Assembly (NCBI GenBank): GCA_963719515.1
Contig: CAVRCJ010000003.1
Span: 512,001-576,000, forward strand
From: an uncultured cyanobacterium
Lineage (GTDB): Bacteria; Cyanobacteriota; Cyanobacteriia; CAKZMO01
Reading direction: 5' to 3'
DNA: 64,000 bases
The number at the start of each line of letters is the position of its first letter. Position 1 is the first letter of the stretch. The notes beneath the pieces are model-generated. The model saw only the letters and a list, made by a program, of their open reading frames with translations, was not told the DNA's origin and searched no databases. This document shows positions 18,118 through 30,223 of the stretch, piece after piece. Position numbers and translations under genes: made by a program.

Positions 18118-19155
18118 ATGCGGACAATTTTGTGCGGCTACTATGGCATGGGCAACGGAGGCGACGAGGCTCTTCTGGCGACAGCGCTGCAGATGCTGCC
18201 CTCCAACGCCACCCCCATAGTGCTGTCCGGGCAGCCCCAGCTTACCCAACAGCAATATTCCGTCGAGGCGGTGCCGCGTAAGTCCCCTACGGCGGTGCTG
18301 GGGTCGATGCGGCGAGCCGACGCTTTTGTCTGGGGCGGCGGTAGCCTGATGCAGGATGCCACCAGTCGCCTAAATCCGCTTTACTACGGCGGGCTGATGG
18401 GGCTGGCTCAGCAGTTTGGACTCAAAACCGTGGCCTGGGCCCAAGGTATCGGTCCCCTCAACCAAGAGCTCACCCGGCGCGTCGCCCGGCAGGCCTATCG
18501 CCAGTGCCACGCCGTCAGCGTGCGGGATCAAGGCTCAGCCCAGCAGCTGGCCGCCTGGAACGTTCCTGGCATTTTGGCCCCCGATCCCGTCTGGGCTCTC
18601 GAAGGAAAGTCCCTGGCTGGACTGTGGGAACTGCCCGCTCCAAGAATTGCGGTCACCCTCAGAACCCATCCGGATTTGACCCCGCAGCGGCTGTCAGTTA
18701 TGACGGATGCCCTGTCAATGCTGCAGGCCGCAACGGGCGCATGCTTGCTGATTGTTCCTTTTCAACTGCCCCAAGATTTGGCCCTGGCCCAGGCGGTCCA
18801 GGCGCGTCTACCCAAAAGCCATCTGCTTCAAATTCAAGATCCCCGTCAGCTCGCAGGTGTCTTTAAAGGGGTGGAAATGGCGATCGCCATGCGGCTACAC
18901 GGTCTGATTATGGCAGCGGCGGCGGAATGCCGTACCTTTGCCATTAGCTACGATCCCAAAATCGACCAGCTGATGCAGACACTTTCCATACCGGGCTGGC
19001 GACTCGACCAGATGCCGCTTGACGCCGCTAAAATTAGCCAAGCTTGGCTAGAGCAGTTCGTCAATGGCGATGCCCTGTCTCTAGACCAAATTCAGTCCCT
19101 ACGCGATCGCGCTCTGATGCATCAAGACGTGCTGCATGAGGCGCTGACGTCTTAA
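18118..19155 (+). CDS. csaB: Polysaccharide pyruvyl transferase
   Basis: CGYYGMGNGGDEALL, GGGSLMQDATS, MRLHGLI, SYDPK. Confidence 0.92.
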   Translation: MRTILCGYYGMGNGGDEALLATALQMLPSNATPIVLSGQPQLTQQQYSVEAVPRKSPTAVLGSMRRADAFVWGGGSLMQDATSRLNPLYYGGLMGLAQQFGLKTVAWAQGIGPLNQELTRRVARQAYRQCHAVSVRDQGSAQQLAAWNVPGILAPDPVWALEGKSLAGLWELPAPRIAVTLRTHPDLTPQRLSVMTDALSMLQAATGACLLIVPFQLPQDLALAQAVQARLPKSHLLQIQDPRQLAGVFKGVEMAIAMRLHGLIMAAAAECRTFAISYDPKIDQLMQTLSIPGWRLDQMPLDAAKISQAWLEQFVNGDALSLDQIQSLRDRALMHQDVLHEALTS

Positions 19156-19207
19156 GAGGAACACAGTTCGGTATGATGGGGGGAGCCAATTTTTGCATTG
19201 AGATACT

Positions 19208-19324
19208 ATGCTGACCTTAAAAATCGTTGTATACGTCGTCGTCTCCTTCTTCGTCGGGATCTTTATTTTCGGATTCTTGTCCAACGATCCCGCCCGCAAC
19301 CCCAACCGCCGCGACTTCGAATAA
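19208..19324 (+). CDS. psbI: Photosystem II protein I (missed by the ORF track)
   Basis: [38 protein letters not shown]. Confidence 0.97.
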
Positions 19325-19553
19325 GCCTCTAGTCGCGATTTCACGAGCGCTTGAGTTATAGGCACTCGGCCACAGCACCTGAGCTATAGGCTGAGTGGGC
19401 ACGTCAGTGCCATTCCGTCCCCTTATGCTTACGCTGACTTGGGGACGTTTTCTTAGCGAGTCGTCAATCGGTGATGCAGCGCTGTAGCGTAGCGACTGAG
19501 GTATTGACCCTGCGGACCAGTCGGGCTTTGTTTTTGGTGTGAGTTGTTAGTCT

Positions 19554-22500
19554 ATGCCCTATCCAGTGCCGCCACCGCCACCGCTCGTTCATGTGGCAGC
19601 AGTGTCTTATGTCGATGCTCTGCCTCGGCCCGAAAACCTGATTGCTGAGGCAGAGCGTCAGGTTCTCTTGCCAGAGCCGATGTCCGCTAGGCCCTTGGCG
19701 TCATTGAGCCCGTCTCTACTATCCAGCACTGCAGGGCCCAGCTCTGCAGTGCCCAGGCCTGTAGCGCCAGAGTCTACGGTGCCAGGACTCACACCGCCAG
19801 GGCTTACACCGTCAGGACTCACAGCGCCAGAACTCACAGCGCCAGGACTCACAGCGCCAGGACTCACAGCGCCAGGACTCACAGCGTCAGGACTCACAGC
19901 GCCACAGCCTACAGCGCCCGTCCTGCCGGATCTAATAGCGCAATCGGCGAGGGCGCAATCGGTACTATTACCCACGTCAGCATCGACGCCCGACGAGCCT
20001 GGGATACCGCTCAACGTCTATCCCACCGCTTCTGCTGGCGACGCCGATGGCGAAACGGTCGACCCCAGCAGCCTCGGCCCGGCGGTGGAAGTTGGCCTTC
20101 CGTCGGGCGGCTCCCTGCCGGGATCTCACCTCGGCAACCTGCAGCGGGACTACGGCCTTAATGAGGCGACAGCGCTCCAGCTCGAGTCTGATGTAGTGTC
20201 ACGTCTGGAGTCTGACGAAGCGGCATACGAAAAGACGGCGGTATTGCTGCACGATAGCCGAGACATTTTGGGCGAGCTAGTGGACTGGGTGGCCCAGCAG
20301 TCTCAAGAGATTATCCCCGGCGAACTTCAGGCTCCCCTGCCGAGCTCGACCAATCGGCCAAACGCCGCGCCAGAGACCAACGCCATTCCTCTAGAAGACC
20401 TCGATCTAGGCCCTTCTGACGAGGCTGCTCCAGAGGAGACGGCGGCTGTCGGTGCCCTAGAGGTGATCGCCGATCGCCAAATCTACGATCAGCGGCAGCA
20501 GGCGTTCATTGCTGAGGGGAACGTTGCCCTATTGGTCAGAGGCTCGATCCTCACTGCAGATGAGGTGCGGGTCAATTTACCCAATCAAATCGCTATTGCC
20601 ACCGGAGACGTGGTGTTCACCCGGGGCGACCAGGTGCTGCGAGGCGATCGCATCGAATATAATTTTGTGCGGGAAGAAGGGGCCGTGCTGGATGCCCGAG
20701 GCGAGGTGTTTATTCCTCAAATTGCCGCAGACCTTTCCGGCGATCGCCCCATAGCGGGTCCCTCAACGGCCACGCCTCAGGCAGGCGTTGACGTCGGGGT
20801 TTCCCAAGAAGACATTCTTAGCCAGCGCCTCAGCCGCCAGCAGCCCGAGGTGCAGACGGCAACTTCCACTGGGGGCGTAACCGTCGGGGCCGGGATCTCT
20901 GGCGCTCGGGGAAGCTCCAACCAAGGGTCAGCCTCGGGAAGCGTCCGGCAGCTGCGGTTTGAGGCCGAGCGCATCGATTTTCGCCCCGGCGGCTGGGTCG
21001 CCTCTAACGTCCGGCTCACTAACGATCCCTTCTCCCCTCCAGAACTCGAAATTCGCACCAACCAGGCGACCTTTCAAAGGCTGTCTGCCACCCGCAGCGA
21101 GCTGCGGCTCAAAAATCCCCGCCTGGTCGTTGACCAAGGACTTGCCATCCCGCTGCTGCGATCGCGCTTTATCTTTGACGAGCGCCAGCGCAATCCACTG
21201 CCGATCCAGTTTGGTTTTGATGAAGAGGATCGAGATGGCCTGTTTGCAGAGCGACCGTTTGAGGTACTTGCCACTCCGGACATTCAGTTCACCGTCACGC
21301 CTCAGTTTTTTATTCAGCGAGCTTTTACGGGCCGTGACGCAGACGCCATTGAGCTGGGCGAAAACGATACTGGGGTGCTCAACCCTAACTCCTATGGTCT
21401 GACTTCGGAGTTAGACATTGCCTTTGACTCGCTGACCTCCTTAGAGGCAAACACCGTTCTTACCAGCCTAGACTTCGACCAAAACTTTGCCGACGAGGAC
21501 TTACGGGGGCTGGTGCGTCTGCGCCGCCGTACCCCCAGCGGGTACACCTTCACCGGAGAATACAACTACCGCGATCGCCTCTTCAACGGGACCTTAGGGT
21601 TCCAAACGGTAGACCAGTCCTTTGGCTTCATCGCCACCTCTCCCACGATTCGATTAGGCAACTCTGGCGTCGAGCTCACCTACCAGGGAGCCATTCAGCG
21701 GATCACAGACGACATTCGCTTTGAGCGGCGAGACGACCTTCTGGGGCCTATCCTCGAGCGGGAGGACAACAACACGACCTTGACCCGCTACCAGCTCGCG
21801 GCTGAGCTACAGCGCTTTTTTCTCCTATGGTCAGGTACCCCCCTTCCGGCAACGCCGGACCAAGGTCTGCGCTATACGCCAACGCCCGTAGTTCCTTTTA
21901 TTGGGTTCAGCCCTCGGGTGCGAGGGGTTGCAGGGGTCTATAGCAGCGGCGACACTCAGCCTATTCTGACTGGGCAGCTGTCGTTTTTTGGCCAGTTTGG
22001 CCACTTTTCTCGATCGGCCTTCGACTATCTAGGCTTTAATCTCACCTATCGCCGCAGCACTGAGGGGAGTGAATCTCCCTTCAACTTCGATCTGGTACGC
22101 GATCGGGAGGTGTTCTCAGGAGGATTGACGGCCCAGCTCATTGGCCCCTTCCGCGCCGGCTTTCAGACTTCGATCAGCCTCTCCCAAGACCGGGGTTTCG
22201 ATACCAGCTACTTTGTCGAATACAGTCGCCGCACCTTTGGCCTGGTTGCTCGGTTCAATCCCGATCGGGAAATCGGCTCTTTCAATCTGCGCATCAGCGA
22301 CTTTACCTGGGCTGGAACGCCGCGCCGCTTTGACGCTGAGCCCGTAGAGTACGACCCACAGCTTGTGGATCCTGACTCAGTAGATTTCCCTGCTGATAGG
22401 GTGATTGACGCTGAGTCCGATCCGGCTGAGCCAATCGACGCTGAGCTTGGAGAGGCTGAGCCCGTAACCGATGAGCCCGTAACCGATGAGCCCATAGATC

Positions 22501-22586
22501 TAGATCAACTGGATTTAGACTCACCGATTTTAAATCCATTAGAAGATGACCTCAACGAAAACTCAGCACCCCTATTTGAGCGCTAA
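19554..22586 (+). CDS. DUF3769 / LptD-like outer-membrane assembly protein
   Basis: MPYPVPPP start, ADRQIYD...AEGNV OstA-like domain, RLTNDPFSPPELE, C-terminal beta-barrel-like region. Confidence 0.82.
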   Translation: MPYPVPPPPPLVHVAAVSYVDALPRPENLIAEAERQVLLPEPMSARPLASLSPSLLSSTAGPSSAVPRPVAPESTVPGLTPPGLTPSGLTAPELTAPGLTAPGLTAPGLTASGLTAPQPTAPVLPDLIAQSARAQSVLLPTSASTPDEPGIPLNVYPTASAGDADGETVDPSSLGPAVEVGLPSGGSLPGSHLGNLQRDYGLNEATALQLESDVVSRLESDEAAYEKTAVLLHDSRDILGELVDWVAQQSQEIIPGELQAPLPSSTNRPNAAPETNAIPLEDLDLGPSDEAAPEETAAVGALEVIADRQIYDQRQQAFIAEGNVALLVRGSILTADEVRVNLPNQIAIATGDVVFTRGDQVLRGDRIEYNFVREEGAVLDARGEVFIPQIAADLSGDRPIAGPSTATPQAGVDVGVSQEDILSQRLSRQQPEVQTATSTGGVTVGAGISGARGSSNQGSASGSVRQLRFEAERIDFRPGGWVASNVRLTNDPFSPPELEIRTNQATFQRLSATRSELRLKNPRLVVDQGLAIPLLRSRFIFDERQRNPLPIQFGFDEEDRDGLFAERPFEVLATPDIQFTVTPQFFIQRAFTGRDADAIELGENDTGVLNPNSYGLTSELDIAFDSLTSLEANTVLTSLDFDQNFADEDLRGLVRLRRRTPSGYTFTGEYNYRDRLFNGTLGFQTVDQSFGFIATSPTIRLGNSGVELTYQGAIQRITDDIRFERRDDLLGPILEREDNNTTLTRYQLAAELQRFFLLWSGTPLPATPDQGLRYTPTPVVPFIGFSPRVRGVAGVYSSGDTQPILTGQLSFFGQFGHFSRSAFDYLGFNLTYRRSTEGSESPFNFDLVRDREVFSGGLTAQLIGPFRAGFQTSISLSQDRGFDTSYFVEYSRRTFGLVARFNPDREIGSFNLRISDFTWAGTPRRFDAEPVEYDPQLVDPDSVDFPADRVIDAESDPAEPIDAELGEAEPVTDEPVTDEPIDLDQLDLDSPILNPLEDDLNENSAPLFER
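19782..19916 (+). repeat. In-frame 15-bp tandem repeat x9 (PGLTA)
   Basis: CCAGGACTCACAGCG units. Confidence 0.9.
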
Positions 22587-22610
22587 CTGACTGCTCCCCA
22601 GCCCTAGGCC

Positions 22611-23288
22611 ATGCATATCCTCTTGGTGGACGATGAAGTCGAGCTAGCAGACGCCCTCAGTCAAATTTTGCGGCGAGAGGGCTATGAGGTGACGGTGGCC
22701 TACGACGGCAATGCCGGCGCAGCGCTGGCGGAGGCTGGAGGTCACGACCTGCTAATTTTGGACTGGATGCTGCCGGGGCAAAGTGGCCTAGAGCTGTGCC
22801 AGGGGCTGCGATCGCAAGGGCGAGTAACGCCGGTGCTTTTTTTGACGGCAAAAGATACGCTGGATGACCGGGTTGGGGGGCTAGATGCTGGAGCAGACGA
22901 CTATCTGGTAAAGCCCTTTGAGCTGAAAGAGCTGCTGGCGCGGGTGCGGGCCTTACTGAGACGACCGCCTACCCTGGCGACTGCGGTTAGCTGCCTCACG
23001 TTGGGGAAGCTGACTCTCGATCCCGCTAACCAAGTCGCCCGTCGCGGCGATCGCACCGTGGAGCTATCAGAAAAAGAGAGTCTGCTGCTGAGCTATTTTA
23101 TGCGCCACCCTAACCAGCTGCTATCTCACGAAGCTATCTACCAGCAGGTTTGGCAGGAAGAGCCCGCCACCAGCAACGTATTGGCGGCCCAGGTGCGGCT
23201 GCTGCGGCGCAAGCTAGAACATTTAGGCGAGTCGTCCCTCATCCATACGGTTTACGGCAAGGGCTATCGCGTTGGCCCGCTGGGTTAG
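22611..23288 (+). CDS. OmpR-family response regulator (RppA-like), no adjacent kinase
   Basis: ILLVDDE, LDWMLPG, DDYLVKPF, IHTVYGKGY. Confidence 0.92.
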   Translation: MHILLVDDEVELADALSQILRREGYEVTVAYDGNAGAALAEAGGHDLLILDWMLPGQSGLELCQGLRSQGRVTPVLFLTAKDTLDDRVGGLDAGADDYLVKPFELKELLARVRALLRRPPTLATAVSCLTLGKLTLDPANQVARRGDRTVELSEKESLLLSYFMRHPNQLLSHEAIYQQVWQEEPATSNVLAAQVRLLRRKLEHLGESSLIHTVYGKGYRVGPLG

Positions 23289-23517
23289 TCCTGTGGCCCT
23301 AGCGCAGCATCAAGGCCTAGATCTGACGCTTGGTTCGCATTGACGCGCTTGCACAATACTGCTGGCGGGTCTATTGGTCTCTGTAGGTCACAAAAGGGGG
23401 AACCTATCACTTTTAGTTGAGAGTGAGATAAGAGTAACCAATCTTTTATAGACCGTTTGACCTGGCGCAGCTGCCGCCTAGCCGCTCTCGTCACCCATCA
23501 TTCACAGGAGTAACGCT

Positions 23518-23757
23518 ATGTTTAGCTCAGCGATCGCGTCTGTCTCCGACTCGTTTTTGCCGAGATTTACCACCCAGCTCAATGAGGCCGTTGTCGATAA
23601 AGTCATCTCTCAAGGAGAAAAATGGAGGGTGAAGTACCAGGCCACGACGTGGGCGGCTCGCTGCGTTCGAGAGGACACATGCCTTAGCCCTGACGACGTC
23701 GTATACGTAGTGGGTAGGCAAAACCTAACGCTGTTAATTGATACGGTTATCACCTAG
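23518..23757 (+). CDS. Stand-alone NfeD-like OB-fold protein
   Basis: WRVKYQATTWAARC...VYVVGRQNLTLLI; AGGAG RBS. Confidence 0.8.
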   Translation: MFSSAIASVSDSFLPRFTTQLNEAVVDKVISQGEKWRVKYQATTWAARCVREDTCLSPDDVVYVVGRQNLTLLIDTVIT

Positions 23758-23828
23758 AACTTAAGGGCGGCTGCGGTGAAGGAATAGTCTTTCAACCTAG
23801 CTGCCCTAACATTTTGGTGCGGCAGTTT

Positions 23829-24455
23829 TTATCGTTTGCCAGCGCCCTGCTGCTGCAAGAACTCCTCCTCAAGCTGATGATAAATGCGCCGCAGCAGGCG
23901 CTTTCCTCGCTGAGCCCGCTTGCGCAACGTCGCGGCTTTGCAGGTTTCTCCCTCCCCCGCCAAAATTATTTGGATGTCTGCCCACTCATACCCATCCAGT
24001 AGACGAAACTTCATAAGTTGACCGATATCAGGTCTGATTTCAAGCAGCCGCGCTAGGGCGAGCCATAGAAGATCGATGCGCTGCTCGCGGGTAAGTAACA
24101 GTGCAGGCTCGCTCTCCGCTTCGACGGCAGTTTGGGTCTCAAACTCGTAAGACTGAGGATCCATCAGTATTTCCCTGCGCCGCTCACGCGACTTCTCGCG
24201 GATGATGTTGAGGCATGTGCTGCGCAACCAAGCTTTGTAGTTACGAATAGTCTGTTTTTTCTCCGCCTTGAGCGTACGCTCGTAGGCGATGTGAATGATT
24301 TCGTGGGGTTCAGTCGTGTGGCTCAAGTTGTACTGGTTTATGAACCGCTGCACCATAGAGATAAATGAGTACGGATGGGCGCTATTGGTGCTGAGGATCT
24401 CCCGAACAACATCCTGGAGCTGATTGGGGGGGCAATCGTCGTTAGCCATGCTCAT
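23829..24455 (-). CDS. ECF-like sigma-70 family factor
   Basis: EIIHIAY...IRNYKAWLRSTCLNIIRE (region 2); MKFRLLDGYEWADI...AATLRKRAQRG (region 4). Confidence 0.78.
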   Translation of the reverse strand: MSMANDDCPPNQLQDVVREILSTNSAHPYSFISMVQRFINQYNLSHTTEPHEIIHIAYERTLKAEKKQTIRNYKAWLRSTCLNIIREKSRERRREILMDPQSYEFETQTAVEAESEPALLLTREQRIDLLWLALARLLEIRPDIGQLMKFRLLDGYEWADIQIILAGEGETCKAATLRKRAQRGKRLLRRIYHQLEEEFLQQQGAGKR

Positions 24456-24818
24456 GGAAGGTAGAGATATCTAGATAATTGTGACGAAAGGAACTAAGTG
24501 TGACACTTGAAGTCAAAAATTCTACCGCTTTGAGAAAACTAATTGTGAGACTGAACATATCACATCTGAACAATATGTCTTTTAGATATTGAGGTTCGAA
24601 GCGGTTTGACATAGACTCGAGCGAAGCCCTGTGACCTGATGCTACGAGCTACATCAGTTTATAGAAGCTTTACGGACCGGGCGGATCCATCAAGCTTTCG
24701 TAAACTCCAGCTGTCAAAGCCGTCACATTTGCCCCATCACAACACATATGTAAGTCGCACATATGTCGGCGATCGCGTTTCAACCCCTCACTACTCAAAA
24801 CATACTTCAGGTAAACTT

Positions 24819-25439
24819 ATGGATATTGAAAATATTGATACTGTCTCCGAAGACTTGCTCCTCGAGTCGCAAGGCTATGCAGAGATTGCTCAAGAGTATT
24901 ATTGCCTCTCTCTTCAAAAGCAGCTCAGTGAGGCCCAGGACGAGCGGCTGTCCATTATTCTTCAACTTGCCGAAGGCGATCGCTTGCTCAGCTTTATCAT
25001 TGATGAAACAGACCATATCCTGGGCCACGAGCTCGGCCTAATCGATTTGCCTAAGATTCGTGAGCAGCAGGACCGCCTCCGTCACGCCTTGGACAACAGC
25101 TGGGTCGACCAGGTGATGAAAGGCAGCCGCGATCGCCAGTCGGCCCAGGTGCCAAAGCAATCGCTAGAGCAGGCCCAGACGCGGCTAAAGCAGGAAGGGT
25201 TTTACAACGGTGAGATTGACGGACAGTATGGCCCTGAGACCCAGCAGGCATTTGACAACCTGCGGCAGGCGCTAGCCCATGAGCTAAAGCGACGCGGCCT
25301 CTACAGCGGTCCTGCTCCGGCCAGCTCTCAAACGCTGCAGGATCTGCTGCGCCAGATCAAAGAAAGTGAGCCGGTTCGCGGTACAGATATTGAGACGAAG
25401 GTGGATTTACTGAGTTTGGAGTCTTGGCTGGAGCGCTGA
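24819..25439 (+). CDS. Hypothetical protein with a PG_binding_1-like domain, divergent from the sigma factor
   Basis: Helical N-domain (EYYCLSL...ERLSIILQLA...DHILGHELGL) then AQTRLKQEGFYNGEIDGQYGPETQQA; CAGGT RBS before ATG 24819. Confidence 0.7.
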   Translation: MDIENIDTVSEDLLLESQGYAEIAQEYYCLSLQKQLSEAQDERLSIILQLAEGDRLLSFIIDETDHILGHELGLIDLPKIREQQDRLRHALDNSWVDQVMKGSRDRQSAQVPKQSLEQAQTRLKQEGFYNGEIDGQYGPETQQAFDNLRQALAHELKRRGLYSGPAPASSQTLQDLLRQIKESEPVRGTDIETKVDLLSLESWLER

Positions 25440-25493
25440 GTGGACTATGGGGCGGGCCGCGGAGCAGCAGGTATGAAGCGACTTAGCGTACCG

Positions 25494-26438
25494 CTATCCT
25501 CCTTCACGCAGGGGGGCAGTCACCGTCAGCGCAGTCTTCACAGGTCGCTCGATCCATTGGCTCTCTGACCAGCGCCCCAGGGAAAGATGCCCCTGATAAT
25601 ACAGCGCTGTGGAGCTGCCGCCGTCGAGGTTTAGCGCCTCTACCGCGCCCAGCTCTTCCATGAGGGTCGCTAGCTCGCGCAGCGTTAGCCCCGAGGTCGC
25701 TAGCTCAGGGCGTTGAGCAGCGGCTACCAACAGCAGCTTTCCCGACGCCGTGATGCCAATGGCGCTGCGGGCGTTGGGCCGAGTCTCCCCAAGGGCGTCT
25801 CGAATGCGATCGCCCCCCGCTATAGCCACAAACCCCTCTTCTACAGAGGTCAGCTCGGGCAGCAGGCGCGGTCCGCCGCCCACCGCGTCGAGGGTGCGAC
25901 AGCCCACAGGCGGCGGCTCGCTGTGCGGCGCAATCGCGTAGCTGCCAGGGCTATGTTCACCGCTCTGACTACCCGCACAGCGGTAGCGACGAAACTCAGA
26001 GCGATTGAGGATTTTGGAGAGGTAGGGCGCTAAATCTGGGTTATCCATCAGCCGCGAGTTGTCTCGGGGGGTGGCGACCTCCTCGCCATCAACCGTGATG
26101 TAGGAGGTCGTCTCGCCGTTTTGAGGGTCAAAGAACCCCGCATTGATGGCGGCGATCGCATCCGACTGCTGGGCGATCGCCGCGACGGTATCTAGGGAAG
26201 CCGCAACGCCGACGCTGACTCTGTAGGACGCTGGAACCGTTACAATGTGAACCGTCGACCGCTCTAGCTCACGCGTACTGTAGGTGACTACGGCGGCGGA
26301 CGATGGGTCCGGCGGCGGGGTGGTGACTAGCCCCGGCGCGATTGCTCCGCCTTGCTCTTGAGACATGCCTTGATGTCCGAGTAGAGCGGCCAAGAGACCC
26401 AGGACTATAGCAGTTAGCAGTACAAGTGAACGGCGCAT
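25494..26438 (-). CDS. Phosphodiester glycosidase (NAGPA) family exported protein
   Basis: AAINAGFF, GGGPRL, ARSAIGI, ALNLDGGSST. Confidence 0.88.
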   Translation of the reverse strand: MRRSLVLLTAIVLGLLAALLGHQGMSQEQGGAIAPGLVTTPPPDPSSAAVVTYSTRELERSTVHIVTVPASYRVSVGVAASLDTVAAIAQQSDAIAAINAGFFDPQNGETTSYITVDGEEVATPRDNSRLMDNPDLAPYLSKILNRSEFRRYRCAGSQSGEHSPGSYAIAPHSEPPPVGCRTLDAVGGGPRLLPELTSVEEGFVAIAGGDRIRDALGETRPNARSAIGITASGKLLLVAAAQRPELATSGLTLRELATLMEELGAVEALNLDGGSSTALYYQGHLSLGRWSESQWIERPVKTALTVTAPLREGG

Positions 26439-26483
26439 TGGCGCTTCCCCTCAGTGATGTAGCCGATTAAACCTCTGCTAGAG

Positions 26484-27293
26484 CTAAAATACCTGTCCGC
26501 CCAGCAGTAGTCCAATCATAATCAGCAGCAGCCGTCGCCCGAGCACAAATCCAGCGTCAGGGTTAATCGCAGTGCGGTAGAGGGCGATCGCCGCTGGCGC
26601 AACGATTAGGGCCACGATGGGAAGCCACAGCCCGCTGTAGGTCACGAGCAGAAGATCAAGGCCAACCCTCACCGCCGCCGATGCAGCAATCCAAAGCACC
26701 GCATCTTGTAGGGTTAGGTCAGCAGAGGCCGCTGTACGCTCAGACGATGAGGCGAGTTGGCGCGGTGTGCCGGACGCTGCGGGGGGTTGGGAGGGTAAGG
26801 GAGACTGCAGCGATTGGCCAAACCGCTTTCCCCAGCGAAGCAAATAGGCAGGTCCACTTTGAAGATCTGCTTTGGCGTTCTGCTGAGGCAGACTGCGATA
26901 CTGCCGTCTCAGCCTATCGGCGAGCTGCGCGGCGTCTGCAGCGGACGACGGTGCTGATGGTGATCGGTCTAGGACGTCAGCTTTCAGATCAGCAGGTGCC
27001 GCACCGCTAAATTTTGGGAGTCGCGAGGGGTAGGGGGCTAGAGCGGGATGGCTAGCAGTGCTTATGGGAGAGGCGATCGCCCGGCGCAGCTGCCTGATGC
27101 CGGCATTGTTCACGTCTCTTCTATTAGCTTCTCTTTCCCCAAGCTCTCTCCGAGAGGGTAGGGCTGGAGTAAACGCCGCCAAGTCGGCTACCGCCAAATC
27201 ACCCCGACTGGGCTGGCGAGTTTGGCGGCGCTGGTGACCTATTGTCTGCAGCTTAGTCTGAATACGCTGAATCTCAGCCTGATCGCTGTGCAT
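26484..27293 (-). CDS. Hypothetical protein with C-terminal TM helices
   Basis: GGAGG RBS before ATG 27293; low-complexity middle, 2-3 hydrophobic helices. Confidence 0.6.
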   Translation of the reverse strand: MHSDQAEIQRIQTKLQTIGHQRRQTRQPSRGDLAVADLAAFTPALPSRRELGEREANRRDVNNAGIRQLRRAIASPISTASHPALAPYPSRLPKFSGAAPADLKADVLDRSPSAPSSAADAAQLADRLRRQYRSLPQQNAKADLQSGPAYLLRWGKRFGQSLQSPLPSQPPAASGTPRQLASSSERTAASADLTLQDAVLWIAASAAVRVGLDLLLVTYSGLWLPIVALIVAPAAIALYRTAINPDAGFVLGRRLLLIMIGLLLGGQVF

Positions 27294-27395
27294 GTATAGC
27301 CTCCACAATTCCAAGGGTTGAACGTAATTGAGTACAAGTGTACTATACAACTCGGAATTGACCAAGATTTTTCACAGCAATTTAACCAGCGCGCT

Positions 27396-28307
27396 TCACC
27401 GCGCTTGGGCGAGCTTGTCAATGACGGACTGCGTCGATACGACATGGCGGTCTAAGCCCAAGTCCGCTGGCGACACCCCCAGCGCTAAGGCCACCAGCTG
27501 CGGTAGATGGAGGATGGGTAGCTCAAAGGAGGCCTGCAGCACTTGGGCGACCTCTGGCTGCCGGGAGTCCAGGTTGAGGTGGCATAGGGGACAGGGGGTG
27601 ACGATGCAGTCTGCCCCGGCGGCGATCGCCTCTTGAATATGTCCCCCCGCCATCCGAAAGGAGGTGTCGGTGTCGTAGCTCGACAGGGGCCAGCCGCAGC
27701 ATTGCGTTCGGCCCCGATAGTCAATCGGCGTTGCCCCCAAAGCGCGAAACAGATTTTCCAGGGATTGGGGATTGAGCGGATCGTCATAGGGCAGCTGCTT
27801 CTGGGCCCTGAGCAGATAGCAGCCGTAAAATGCAGCGCAGTTGAGGCCGTTCAGGGGCCGGACAACGCGCTCTCGCAGTGCGCTCAGCCCGTAACGCCCC
27901 ACCAGCATCCACAGTAGATGGGTGACCTCGGTAGTCCCTTGGTAAGGAGAGCAGTGCTCTTGCTCTAAGAGCTGATTGACCTGATCAACGTAGCCGGGAT
28001 CTTCAATTTGCGAGGCTTTGAGGCGCTCGTCGACTCGACCCATCACCCCCTGACAGGTACTGCAATGGGTCAGCAGCGGTAAGTTGAGCGACTCCGCCAG
28101 CGCGATGTTGCGGGCGTTGACGGTGTCTTCGAGCAGCAAAGAATCTTCTCTAAAAGTGCCGGAGCCGCAGCAGGATGCTCGCTTCAGCTCAATGAGCTCT
28201 ATATCCAATGCCTGAGCTACGATTTGCGTCGATTGATGAAGCTCTCGGCAAGCGCCTTGAGCAACGCAGCCCGGAAAGTATGCGTAGCGCAGGGGTGAAG
28301 TTGCCAT
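27396..28307 (-). CDS. hdrB: HdrB-like CCG-domain Fe-S protein
   Basis: [36 protein letters not shown]. Confidence 0.85.
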
Positions 28308-28540
28308 AGATGCACAGTCGCTTAGAGAAAAAGTGGTTTAAGCAATTAGTTTAAGACTGATGTCGTAAGCGTCAGGATCTGGTGCCGCTGTCCAATAAAA
28401 TGGAAGGATGCAAAATTACCACAAGTTGCCGAGCTTGGCGATCGCCTACGCTACCGGCGCTCGATCTAGCTTCTGCTAGTGCGAACGTCCAGAGGAGTGG
28501 TTTAATGATAGCTGCTGATAGTTAAAGAAGAGACAATGTA

Positions 28541-28786
28541 ATGGATCAGGACAAGATTTTTGCAAAAGTTCAGGAAATTGTTTGCGAGCAGTTAGGCGTT
28601 GAGGATTCCGAGGTGAAAGCAGAGTCGAGCTTCGCGAACGACCTTGGGGCGGATTCGCTCGATACGGTCGAGCTCGTCATGGCCCTAGAAGAAGAATTCG
28701 ACATCGAGATTCCTGACGAGGCCGCTGAAAAGATCGCTACGGTTCAGGCCGCTGTGGACTTTATCAAAGAGAAAACTGAGAAGTAG
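28541..28786 (+). CDS. acpP: Acyl carrier protein
   Basis: [20 protein letters not shown]. Confidence 0.98.
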
Positions 28787-28963
28787 ACGGCGCACCGTCT
28801 GTGCATCGTCTCGACCCTGTGGGTGGCGCAGCACCCACAGGCCGAACCCAAAACGACTCGTGCGAATAGGAGCTGCCCTCTCGCCAAGGGCCAGCACTCC
28901 CCCGCTGGCGCAAACGCTGTGCAAGCGCGACGTAAGACTGTAACAGATCCCGATCCTAGAACT

Positions 28964-30223
28964 ATGGTAAATTCTGATTTTCCTAGAGCGCGCGTCGTCA
29001 TTACTGGGTTAGGCGCCGTCACCCCTATTGGCAACACTCTATCTGACTATTGGCAGGGGCTGATGGAGAGCCGCAACGGCATTGGGCGAATTACCCACTT
29101 CGATCCATCAAAGCATGCCTGTCAGATCGCTGGAGAAGTCAAGGCCTTTGACCCGCTGCAGTATCTCGATCGCAAGGACGCAAAGCGAATGGATCGCTTC
29201 GCCCAGTTCGCTATCGCGGCGAGTAAGCAGGCGCTCGCCGATGCCCAGTTTGAGATTACTGAACTCAATGCCGAGCAGGTCGGCGTCATGATTGGAACGG
29301 GTATCGGGGGACTCAAGGTGCTAGAAGAGCAGCATGAGGTCTATCTCACCCGAGGGCCGTCTCGGTGCAGCCCCTTCATGATTCCCACGATGATTGCGAA
29401 CATGGCCGCTGGATTGACGGCTATTCAGGTGGGGGCAAAGGGGCCAAACTCTTGTGCCGTAACCGCCTGCGCTGCCGGGTCTAACGCCATCGGGGATGCC
29501 TTTAGAATTTTGCAAAGGGGCGATGCCCAGGCCATGATCTGCGGTGGCACTGAAGCCGCAATTACGCCTTTGTCCTATGCTGGATTTGCCTCAGCGAAGG
29601 CGCTCTCGACCCGTAACGATGACGCTGCCCATGCGTCGCGCCCCTTTGACCTCAACCGCGACGGCTTTGTTATGGGAGAAGGCTCGGGCATCCTAATTCT
29701 TGAATCGCTGGAGCATGCCCTTAGCCGAGGCGCGAACATCTATGGCGAGATTGTGGGCTATGGTATGACCTGCGATGCCTATCACATGACCTCCCCACCT
29801 CCGGGCGGCACCGGCGCTGCTCGGGCGATGCGCTTAGCGCTTAAAGACGGCGGACTGTTGCCCAGCGCTGTCGACTATATCAATGCTCATGGAACCAGTA
29901 CGCCCGCCAACGACTCTACCGAAACGGCGGCTATCAAGTCGGTCTTAGAAGAGCATGCCTACCAGGTCGCCATCAGCTCGACCAAATCCATGACCGGCCA
30001 CCTGCTCGGCGGGTCTGGGGGAATTGAGGCGGTCGCCGTCGCGATGGCTTTGGTCAAGGAGCGCGTGCCGCCCACAATCAATCTAGAAGTTCCTGACCCG
30101 AAGTGCGATCTCGACTATGTTCCCAACCAGTCCCGAGCCCTGACGGTCAATGTGGCCCTGTCTAATTCGTTCGGATTTGGGGGCCATAACGTCACTCTCG
30201 CATTCAAGCGCTATAGCAATTAG
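28964..30223 (+). CDS. fabF: 3-oxoacyl-ACP synthase II
   Basis: RVVITGLGAVTPIG, TACAAG, INAHGTST, SNSFGFGGHN. Confidence 0.97.
   Translation: MVNSDFPRARVVITGLGAVTPIGNTLSDYWQGLMESRNGIGRITHFDPSKHACQIAGEVKAFDPLQYLDRKDAKRMDRFAQFAIAASKQALADAQFEITELNAEQVGVMIGTGIGGLKVLEEQHEVYLTRGPSRCSPFMIPTMIANMAAGLTAIQVGAKGPNSCAVTACAAGSNAIGDAFRILQRGDAQAMICGGTEAAITPLSYAGFASAKALSTRNDDAAHASRPFDLNRDGFVMGEGSGILILESLEHALSRGANIYGEIVGYGMTCDAYHMTSPPPGGTGAARAMRLALKDGGLLPSAVDYINAHGTSTPANDSTETAAIKSVLEEHAYQVAISSTKSMTGHLLGGSGGIEAVAVAMALVKERVPPTINLEVPDPKCDLDYVPNQSRALTVNVALSNSFGFGGHNVTLAFKRYSN

Follow-up and report, generated by a model that had tools for sequence, protein, structure and literature searches.

A predicted ECF sigma factor module of cyanobacteria with a conserved candidate promoter motif and a putative soluble anti-sigma partner

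Three neighbouring genes in a 64,000-nucleotide stretch of cyanobacterial DNA (the window) are each preceded by the same pair of short boxes, and one of them encodes a sigma-like protein. The question raised by this locus is whether the boxes constitute a promoter read by that protein and, if so, what role falls to the divergently transcribed gene, which carries a motif resembling a peptidoglycan (PG) binding domain. ECF sigmas usually autoregulate and transcribe their neighbours from bipartite promoters, and a sequence-only reading of the window had proposed a regulon of this kind. On sequence and model evidence we consider it probable that the sigma reads GTCACA-N15-CACW and transcribes itself, the divergent gene and an NfeD-like gene, and that the four-helix domain of the divergent gene product binds and inhibits the sigma. 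This view is carried by the fold of the sigma, by the conservation and position of the motif across its family and by the tight linkage of the partner gene. The features of the locus are as follows (window coordinates; scores and ranks refer to the promoter matrix described below).

23387..23411, + strand: predicted promoter of the NfeD-like gene; -35 GTCACA 23387-23392, 15 nt, -10 CACT 23408-23411; predicted +1 G23419; score 20.6, rank 2; kept in G002 and G003
23518..23757, + strand: short NfeD-like OB-fold protein, 79 aa, a variable target gene; PF01957 26.1 bits, under the 29.1 cut-off
23764..23807, + strand: hairpin in the gap where the NfeD-like and sigma genes converge; -27.8 kcal/mol, z -3.05 on + and -1.49 on -
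23829..24455, - strand: ECF-type sigma factor, 208 aa; sigma2 about residues 10-98, sigma4 about 120-195, no extension
24480..24504, - strand: predicted autoregulatory promoter of the sigma gene; -35 GTCACA 24504-24499, 15 nt, -10 CACA 24483-24480; predicted +1 A24472, 17 nt before the ATG; score 23.0, rank 1
24611..24635, - strand: lone GTCACA (GTCACA-N13-GTCTAT), no -10 box; not counted as a promoter
24722..24746, + strand: predicted promoter of the partner gene; -35 GTCACA 24722-24727, 15 nt, -10 CACA 24743-24746; +1 likely 24752-24754; score 15.8, rank 8; kept in G002, G003 and G004
24819..25439, + strand: predicted soluble anti-sigma factor, 206 aa (orthologues 205-208 aa)
24876..25091, + strand: acidic four-helix N-terminal domain of that protein, residues 20-91; predicted anti-sigma domain
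25161..25250, + strand: partial PG_binding_1-like motif, residues 115-144; PF01471 27.1 bits, cut-off 23; profile positions 4-33 of 57

The sigma factor and its divergent partner

Assignment of the 208-aa protein to the ECF-type (group 4) sigma factors, as the sequence-only reading had it, is supported by profile searches and by the predicted model. Against solved structures the family profile matched SigW (E 2e-8), SigL (5e-6) and also sigmaE, and TIGR02937 is matched by 105 of the 122 aligned family members. The model (pLDDT 83) consists of two helical domains with about 25 residues between them; Foldseek returned nothing at E 0.001 or better, its top rows all being ECF sigmas, while sigma4 of the model reaches TM 0.79-0.84 to E. 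coli sigmaE4 and Mtb SigL4 and a wider fold search agrees (best Z 8.7, rmsd 5.1, 76 aligned). ECF surveys rely on Pfam domains, and the window sigma gave no Pfam sigma match at E 0.1 (Sigma70_r2, r4/r4_2) and one weak NCBIfam match; among 17 relatives, r4_2 was found in 8 and r2 in 2. The missing match lowers the detectability of the protein, not the fold assignment. Two arginines of the recognition helix, R178 and R183, are each present in 120 of 122 members, and the window sigma carries Ile56 where 98 of 122 have Glu. The C-terminal helix of sigma4 is basic, and the chain ends about 13 residues after this domain.

The family was sampled as 59 sigma-like matches, of which 53 were kept (three fragments and three weak matches, L062-L064, were dropped) and grouped into 45 clusters at 55% identity; outside its own cluster, identity to the window sigma is 23-38% wherever an alignment could be measured. 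It occurs in 37 of 251 genomes of the cyanobacterial class, with members on three Nostoc plasmids, and counts at least 308 representatives (50% identity clusters) at E 1e-30 or better; all members with an organism name are cyanobacterial, the genome survey being of the cyanobacterial class. The host genome encodes one sigma of the family and one partner. Fusions of the family sigma to TRADD-like_N, to TPR repeats, to a PIN domain or to a further N-terminal region are seen elsewhere, in P0063, P0092, P0109, P0142 and P0025.

The start of the partner gene was set at 24819 because the first ATG of the frame, 24639, lies 5' of the promoter. Of 45 loci, 38 have its N-terminal domain next to the sigma gene, in divergent (15), downstream (15), upstream (6) or convergent (2) arrangement; it is missing from the examined flank in the other seven. 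It was found in 33 of 37 sigma genomes versus 3 of 214 others, a co-occurrence that is partly circular because the sigma neighbours themselves supplied the sequences for the partner profile; a full-length profile was swamped by ordinary PG-binding proteins. The three sigma-less genomes that have the domain are G007, in which the domain is fused to a sigma2-like region, G245, where the gene lies at a contig end with a divergent site beside it, and G134. Fusions to sigma-like regions occur at L181:3143-4711 (G007), L015:1-1467 and L059, with two partner domains ahead of a second sigma at L015, and a frame at L180 (G186) likewise combines the two. A sigma-partner mirror-tree gave rho 0.59, which linkage alone would give.

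Residues 20-91 of the partner match no Pfam or NCBIfam family, gave no Atlas match and no sequence match to any solved anti-sigma, and show no similarity to the sigma. The domain is net negative in 41 of 41 members, none of which has a zinc motif in it (0/41), and its predicted model (pLDDT 92; helices 2-13, 19-34, 36-52 and 58-71) comprises three helices, a loop and a fourth helix. A fold search over 48,161 chains placed the PupR anti-sigma domain first (Z 6.0, rmsd 2.7, 53 aligned), a weak score for a helical bundle and one within reach of unrelated bundles: the next, unrelated match scored Z 5.4, and MucA ranked 20. The predicted architecture resembles that of the class I anti-sigmas RseA, MucA and PupR, in which, according to the available text of PMC7406223, a three-helix bundle with a fourth helix stands at the N-terminus, the C-terminal part is variable and the gene lies beside that of the sigma. 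Unlike those proteins as described there, the partners showed no sequence similarity to them, are mostly soluble, are often divergent from or remote to the sigma and end in a PG-binding-like part.

That part had led to the name 'PG-binding gene'. The motif itself stands, above its cut-off, but the idea of a cell-wall effector gives way to that of a probable anti-sigma, given the acidic four-helix domain adjoining the sigma in most loci. We consider an exported peptidoglycan-binding protein unlikely, as the PF01471 match, albeit above cut-off, covers 30 of 57 positions and goes with no hydrophobic export or anchor segment on hydropathy. A hydropathy scan of the window partner detected no transmembrane or export segment (maximum 19-residue value 1.11), and the PG-binding-like motif is therefore probably cytoplasmic, as a candidate sensor or interaction module. 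OpcA is a cytosolic protein, and the partner profile also matches the PG-binding-like motif in it. Across 42 aligned partners a membrane segment is present in three and the PG_binding_1-like part in 30; elsewhere the C-terminus is absent or made up of pentapeptide repeats, DPBB, membrane segments or a second sigma, and a Nostoc plasmid partner of 108 aa does without the PG-like part.

The divergent gene thus likely encodes the cognate anti-sigma, a role predicted from sequence and model. Were the motif the promoter of the sigma and this gene a co-regulated effector or positive co-factor instead of an inhibitor, the frequency of the PG-like part, the weakness of the anti-sigma fold match and the occurrence of some partners away from a sigma gene, under the same promoter, would all be accommodated. 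We nevertheless find this unlikely, for the PG-like part is dispensable and is swapped for pentapeptide, DPBB or membrane segments, while the N-terminal domain stays constant, acidic and four-helical, and the window protein has no segment for export or anchoring.

The motif as a candidate promoter

As first written, GTCACA-N13-RWCACW, the motif has exactly three matches in the 64-kb window, at 23387-23411 (+), 24504-24480 (-) and 24722-24746 (+). All its coordinates were correct, and each of the three sites lies upstream of and sense to an ORF. Shuffles of the window contained a mean of 0.03 matches (maximum 1), a figure that overstates the case for the motif, which was itself written down from those same three sites; 5 of the 14 GTCACA hexamers in the window are concentrated in the 1.3 kb of the module. 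Genome-wide the exact pattern occurs five times compared to 0-4 times for alternative spacers of 8-21 nt, and so is not enriched outside the module locus. The case for a promoter therefore rests on conservation, not on genome-wide excess.

This conservation is evident upstream of relatives, where the motif check suggested earlier supports the proposal. Within 400 nt upstream, the top hexamers were GTCACA (34/45) and TGTCAC (33/45), with about 4 expected. The strict pattern GTCACA-N15-17-CACW, which was fixed after sites had been viewed and counted over relatives whose kin are not independent, was found on the sense strand upstream of 26 of 45, in coding DNA of 1 of 45 and in shuffles with a mean of 0.14; the remaining 19 have no strict site within 400 nt. 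The distance to the start codon is 44-65 nt in 16 of 27 sites, and the spacer to CAC among the relatives' upstream sites measures 16 nt in 20, 17 nt in five and 15 nt in three. In the sites used for a matrix, the spacer is 16 nt in 33 of 42 and a T precedes GTCACA in 34 of 42, as it does in one of the three window sites. The motif is real but better written as -35 (T)GTCACA, 16+/-1 nt and -10 CACW, or TGTCACA-N16(15-17)-CACW for the family, of which the N13-RWCACW form is the 15-nt variant. A second sigma-gene promoter proposed at 24635-24611 is not supported: its sequence is present, but the -10 score of its second box is negative, -7.4 at best, and no counterpart was seen at three orthologous loci.

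A pyrimidine-purine (YR) step follows CAC by 10 or 11 nt in 32 of 42 sites, versus 1-12 at eight other offsets, and these positions played no part in site selection. If its purine is taken as +1, CACW spans -11 to -8 and GTCACA -33 to -28, which fits ECF promoters, whose -35/-10/+1 geometry is established; at the partner gene a TA step lies 2 nt earlier than the consensus. ECF promoter scoring uses 16-18 nt spacers, according to the available part of PMC7776599. The directional step and the spacing to start codons speak for a promoter and against a direct-repeat operator, GTCACA...NWCACW over about two helical turns, bound by the RppA-like regulator next door, a CRP-family protein or the sigma-like protein without RNA polymerase. 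The half-site of the CRP family is TCACA, the second box does resemble the first, with a perfect GTCACA at the sigma site of the window, and an RppA-like regulator of the OmpR family ends 98 nt before the first site. Yet just 4 of 42 sites have GTCACA as their second box, 3 of 35 have a left half like that of CRP and 1 of 35 has a repeat at +10/11, and the regulator flanks the module in G000, G002 and G003 only, so that an operator seems to us decidedly improbable. We regard the motif as the likely -35/-10 promoter read by the ECF sigma.

Further observations bear on this promoter. Pairs of sites from one locus agree in spacer length in 40 of 57 cases, where 28.6 would be expected (p 0.0008). 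At the four orthologous loci, 10 of 12 sites have the 15-nt spacer, versus 9 of 78 elsewhere; such tracking of locus, with 15 nt in the clade of the window, would follow from recognition by the local sigma. Sites were also found outside the sample, at two almost identical loci on Nostoc plasmids, where they score 26.7 and 22.2 before sigma and partner, and before five of seven stand-alone partner genes without an adjacent sigma. When the matrix was trained without the four orthologous loci and scanned over the whole genome, the window sites ranked 1 (sigma), 2 (NfeD-like) and 8 (partner), and seven sites in the 5.3 Mb scored at least 16. Conservation, YR step and genome rank together lend computational support to the autoregulatory bipartite promoter. 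The other top matches (C14:9294, C5:59403/59426, C5:107859, C6:2295 and C11:306172) are intragenic or have no long ORF downstream; C15:152620 and C7:3194 (15.0 and 15.2) precede ORFs.

The orthologous loci of G002 and G003 have the full set of three sites, and that of G004, whose contig stops 127 nt past the sigma stop, has the sigma and partner sites; the sigma-gene site lies at -49 to -53 in all three. That the module is a decaying mobile cassette, in which the local motif has lost its former function or the site at the NfeD-like gene is there by chance, could appeal to the patchy distribution and plasmid copies, to right-hand neighbours that differ among the four congeners, to the low GC of the intergenic DNA (0.43 vs 0.59-0.61) and to broken copies elsewhere (L041, L059), but is highly improbable with three intact ORFs and with boxes kept while spacers diverged between orthologues of 66-84% protein identity.

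Some additional sites deserve mention. The Nostoc plasmids carry a third strong site (27.6) at L148:3018 (+) and L149:3019 (+); no clear ATG-started ORF lies between the L148 site and the convergent partner gene, and a small RNA or micro-protein is a possible target. An identical 39-nt stretch scoring 13.7 is present in at least 14 copies on many contigs of the host genome, G000 (e.g. C6:4677, C5:56457 and C3:306369), and likely belongs to a repeat element, for instance an insertion sequence. Back-to-back copies in which the -35 of one site overlaps the -10 of the other occur at G000 C5:59403 (+)/59426 (-), without a clear target, and before a truncated sigma at L059 (G231:C3, about 95254-95286).

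Target genes, feedback and genomic context

The proposed three-gene module is upheld for the sigma and its partner, which form a conserved unit; the NfeD-like gene, present at 3 of 44 loci by clustering and preceded by a site at two of these, is variable. A zinc-ribbon/transmembrane gene of 65-95 aa more often takes the third place, at 9 of 44 loci with a site at all nine (L005, L011, L027, L029, L038, L046, L053, L057 and L058); its products, a family without a name, have CPxC..CxxC and one C-terminal hydrophobic segment. The three zinc-ribbon homologues of the host genome have no site. On C5 of G000 (about 241484-242050, -) such a gene lies directly upstream of a second short NfeD-like gene, without the motif, a pair also seen at the module locus of G142. 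Pentapeptide-repeat-like small genes stand behind the motif at four loci (L033:82-471, L099, L186:3122-3544 and L181:5328-5780) as a further recurrent target.

The NfeD-like protein of the window has no transmembrane stretch (maximum hydropathy 1.19). An NfeD partner of an SPFH/flotillin operon was rejected: PF01957 is below cut-off, there is no membrane anchor and the neighbours are a response regulator and a sigma. The hairpin between this gene and the convergent sigma gene is a possible terminator. NfeD-like genes also lie near module genes in G142, G062, G186 and G245; the one in G186, tried as a remote target, actually adjoins the frame with the partner domain. Among best NfeD matches, a site above 10 was present in 4 of 12 from sigma genomes, the other eight having none, and in 0 of 18 from sigma-less genomes.

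Of 27 pattern matches in five genomes with several copies, 15 fall at module loci and the remaining 12 stand against 18 in the control, which agrees with the earlier suggestion of a self-contained local regulon. Twenty stretches around pattern matches elsewhere, mostly in sigma-less genomes, contained neither sigma nor partner, and the regulon looks small and local. Several sigma paralogues in one genome have the same motif, so specificity would have to come from the partners.

A simple circuit can be envisaged. Binding GTCACA-N15-CACW as -35/-10, the sigma would transcribe its own gene, giving positive feedback, and that of the partner, which would sequester it and so provide negative feedback; the NfeD-like gene would be transcribed alongside. 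A signal acting on the variable C-terminal part of the partner, here the presumed cytoplasmic PG-binding-like motif, might then free the sigma. Envelope or membrane stress as the signal is a guess and the least certain step, made because the recurrent targets are small NfeD-like and membrane proteins.

The RppA-like response regulator to the left (22611-23288, +; NF041734 255.2 bits, cut-off 250) lies directly behind a 1010-aa ORF, and no kinase was found among the ORFs at 19000-30000.

Relation to described ECF groups

The closest described promoter is that of ECF41, which, in the available text of PMC3426412, shares the -35 TGTCACA, the 16+/-1 nt spacer, autoregulation and a regulon limited to neighbours. 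The -10 is CACW here versus CGTC in ECF41, whose SnoaL-like C-terminal extension of about 120 aa (PMC3426412) is absent; a separate partner gene is present, and no carboxymuconolactone decarboxylase, oxidoreductase or epimerase is among the recurrent neighbours. We therefore rejected membership of ECF41, the -35 and spacer agreeing but the -10 and the extension not. Among the supplement entries of PMC7826278 available, TGTCAC appears in ECF41, 103, 250 and 288 only, none with a CAC -10. ECF103, ECF250 and ECF288 share the TGTCAC(A) -35 element, differ by -10 elements TCT, GTTATATA and TGTCTAAT and by membrane-bound anti-sigmas or Cys-rich extensions, and are absent from the seven mentions of cyanobacteria in those entries. 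No group among them combines this promoter, partner and taxon; by sequence, membership of ECF237 or ECF111 is conceivable. A search of the open literature found no description of the sigma family or its promoter; the ECF group HMMs and the datasets of PMC7776599 and PMC11119718 may hold members. We believe that these sigmas likely form a new ECF group that has a promoter and an anti-sigma domain of its own, whereas the regulatory logic itself, by analogy, would be the textbook one of an ECF sigma with a class I anti-sigma.

Systems combining an ECF sigma with DUF1822 and EACC2-caspase, or with TRADD-N (PMC8195603, available text), likewise have ECF-like sigmas of multicellular bacteria with variable partners. 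One member of our family is fused to TRADD-like_N, and a CyanoTRADDas_TM-type gene occurs at 3 of 44 loci (one of three scanned). Unlike in those systems, there was no DUF1822 match among 25 of the 29 Pfam families matched by the 42 partners and no caspase among recurrent neighbours, and nothing of the kind lies at the window locus. More speculatively, and in our estimation rather doubtful, the modules could be a large, mobile cassette family in which as many as five paralogous sigmas of a genome read one promoter code, each held in check by its own soluble anti-sigma with a swappable sensor; the commonest sensor, the cytoplasmic PG-binding-like motif, would detect cell-wall fragments or an invader-derived ligand and thereby tie the ECF response to conflict systems of filamentous cyanobacteria (TRADD-N, TPR fusions).

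Cyanobacteria are counted as ECF-poor, at 2.7 per genome in the available text of PMC7826278, and the window sigma gives no match to the Pfam domains used in such counts. With its readable promoter, its predicted start sites and a predicted anti-sigma domain that has no name yet, this family of 308 clusters or more is a directly testable new ECF group. As strong sites are rare away from the locus, the module is also a candidate orthogonal switch for cyanobacterial engineering.
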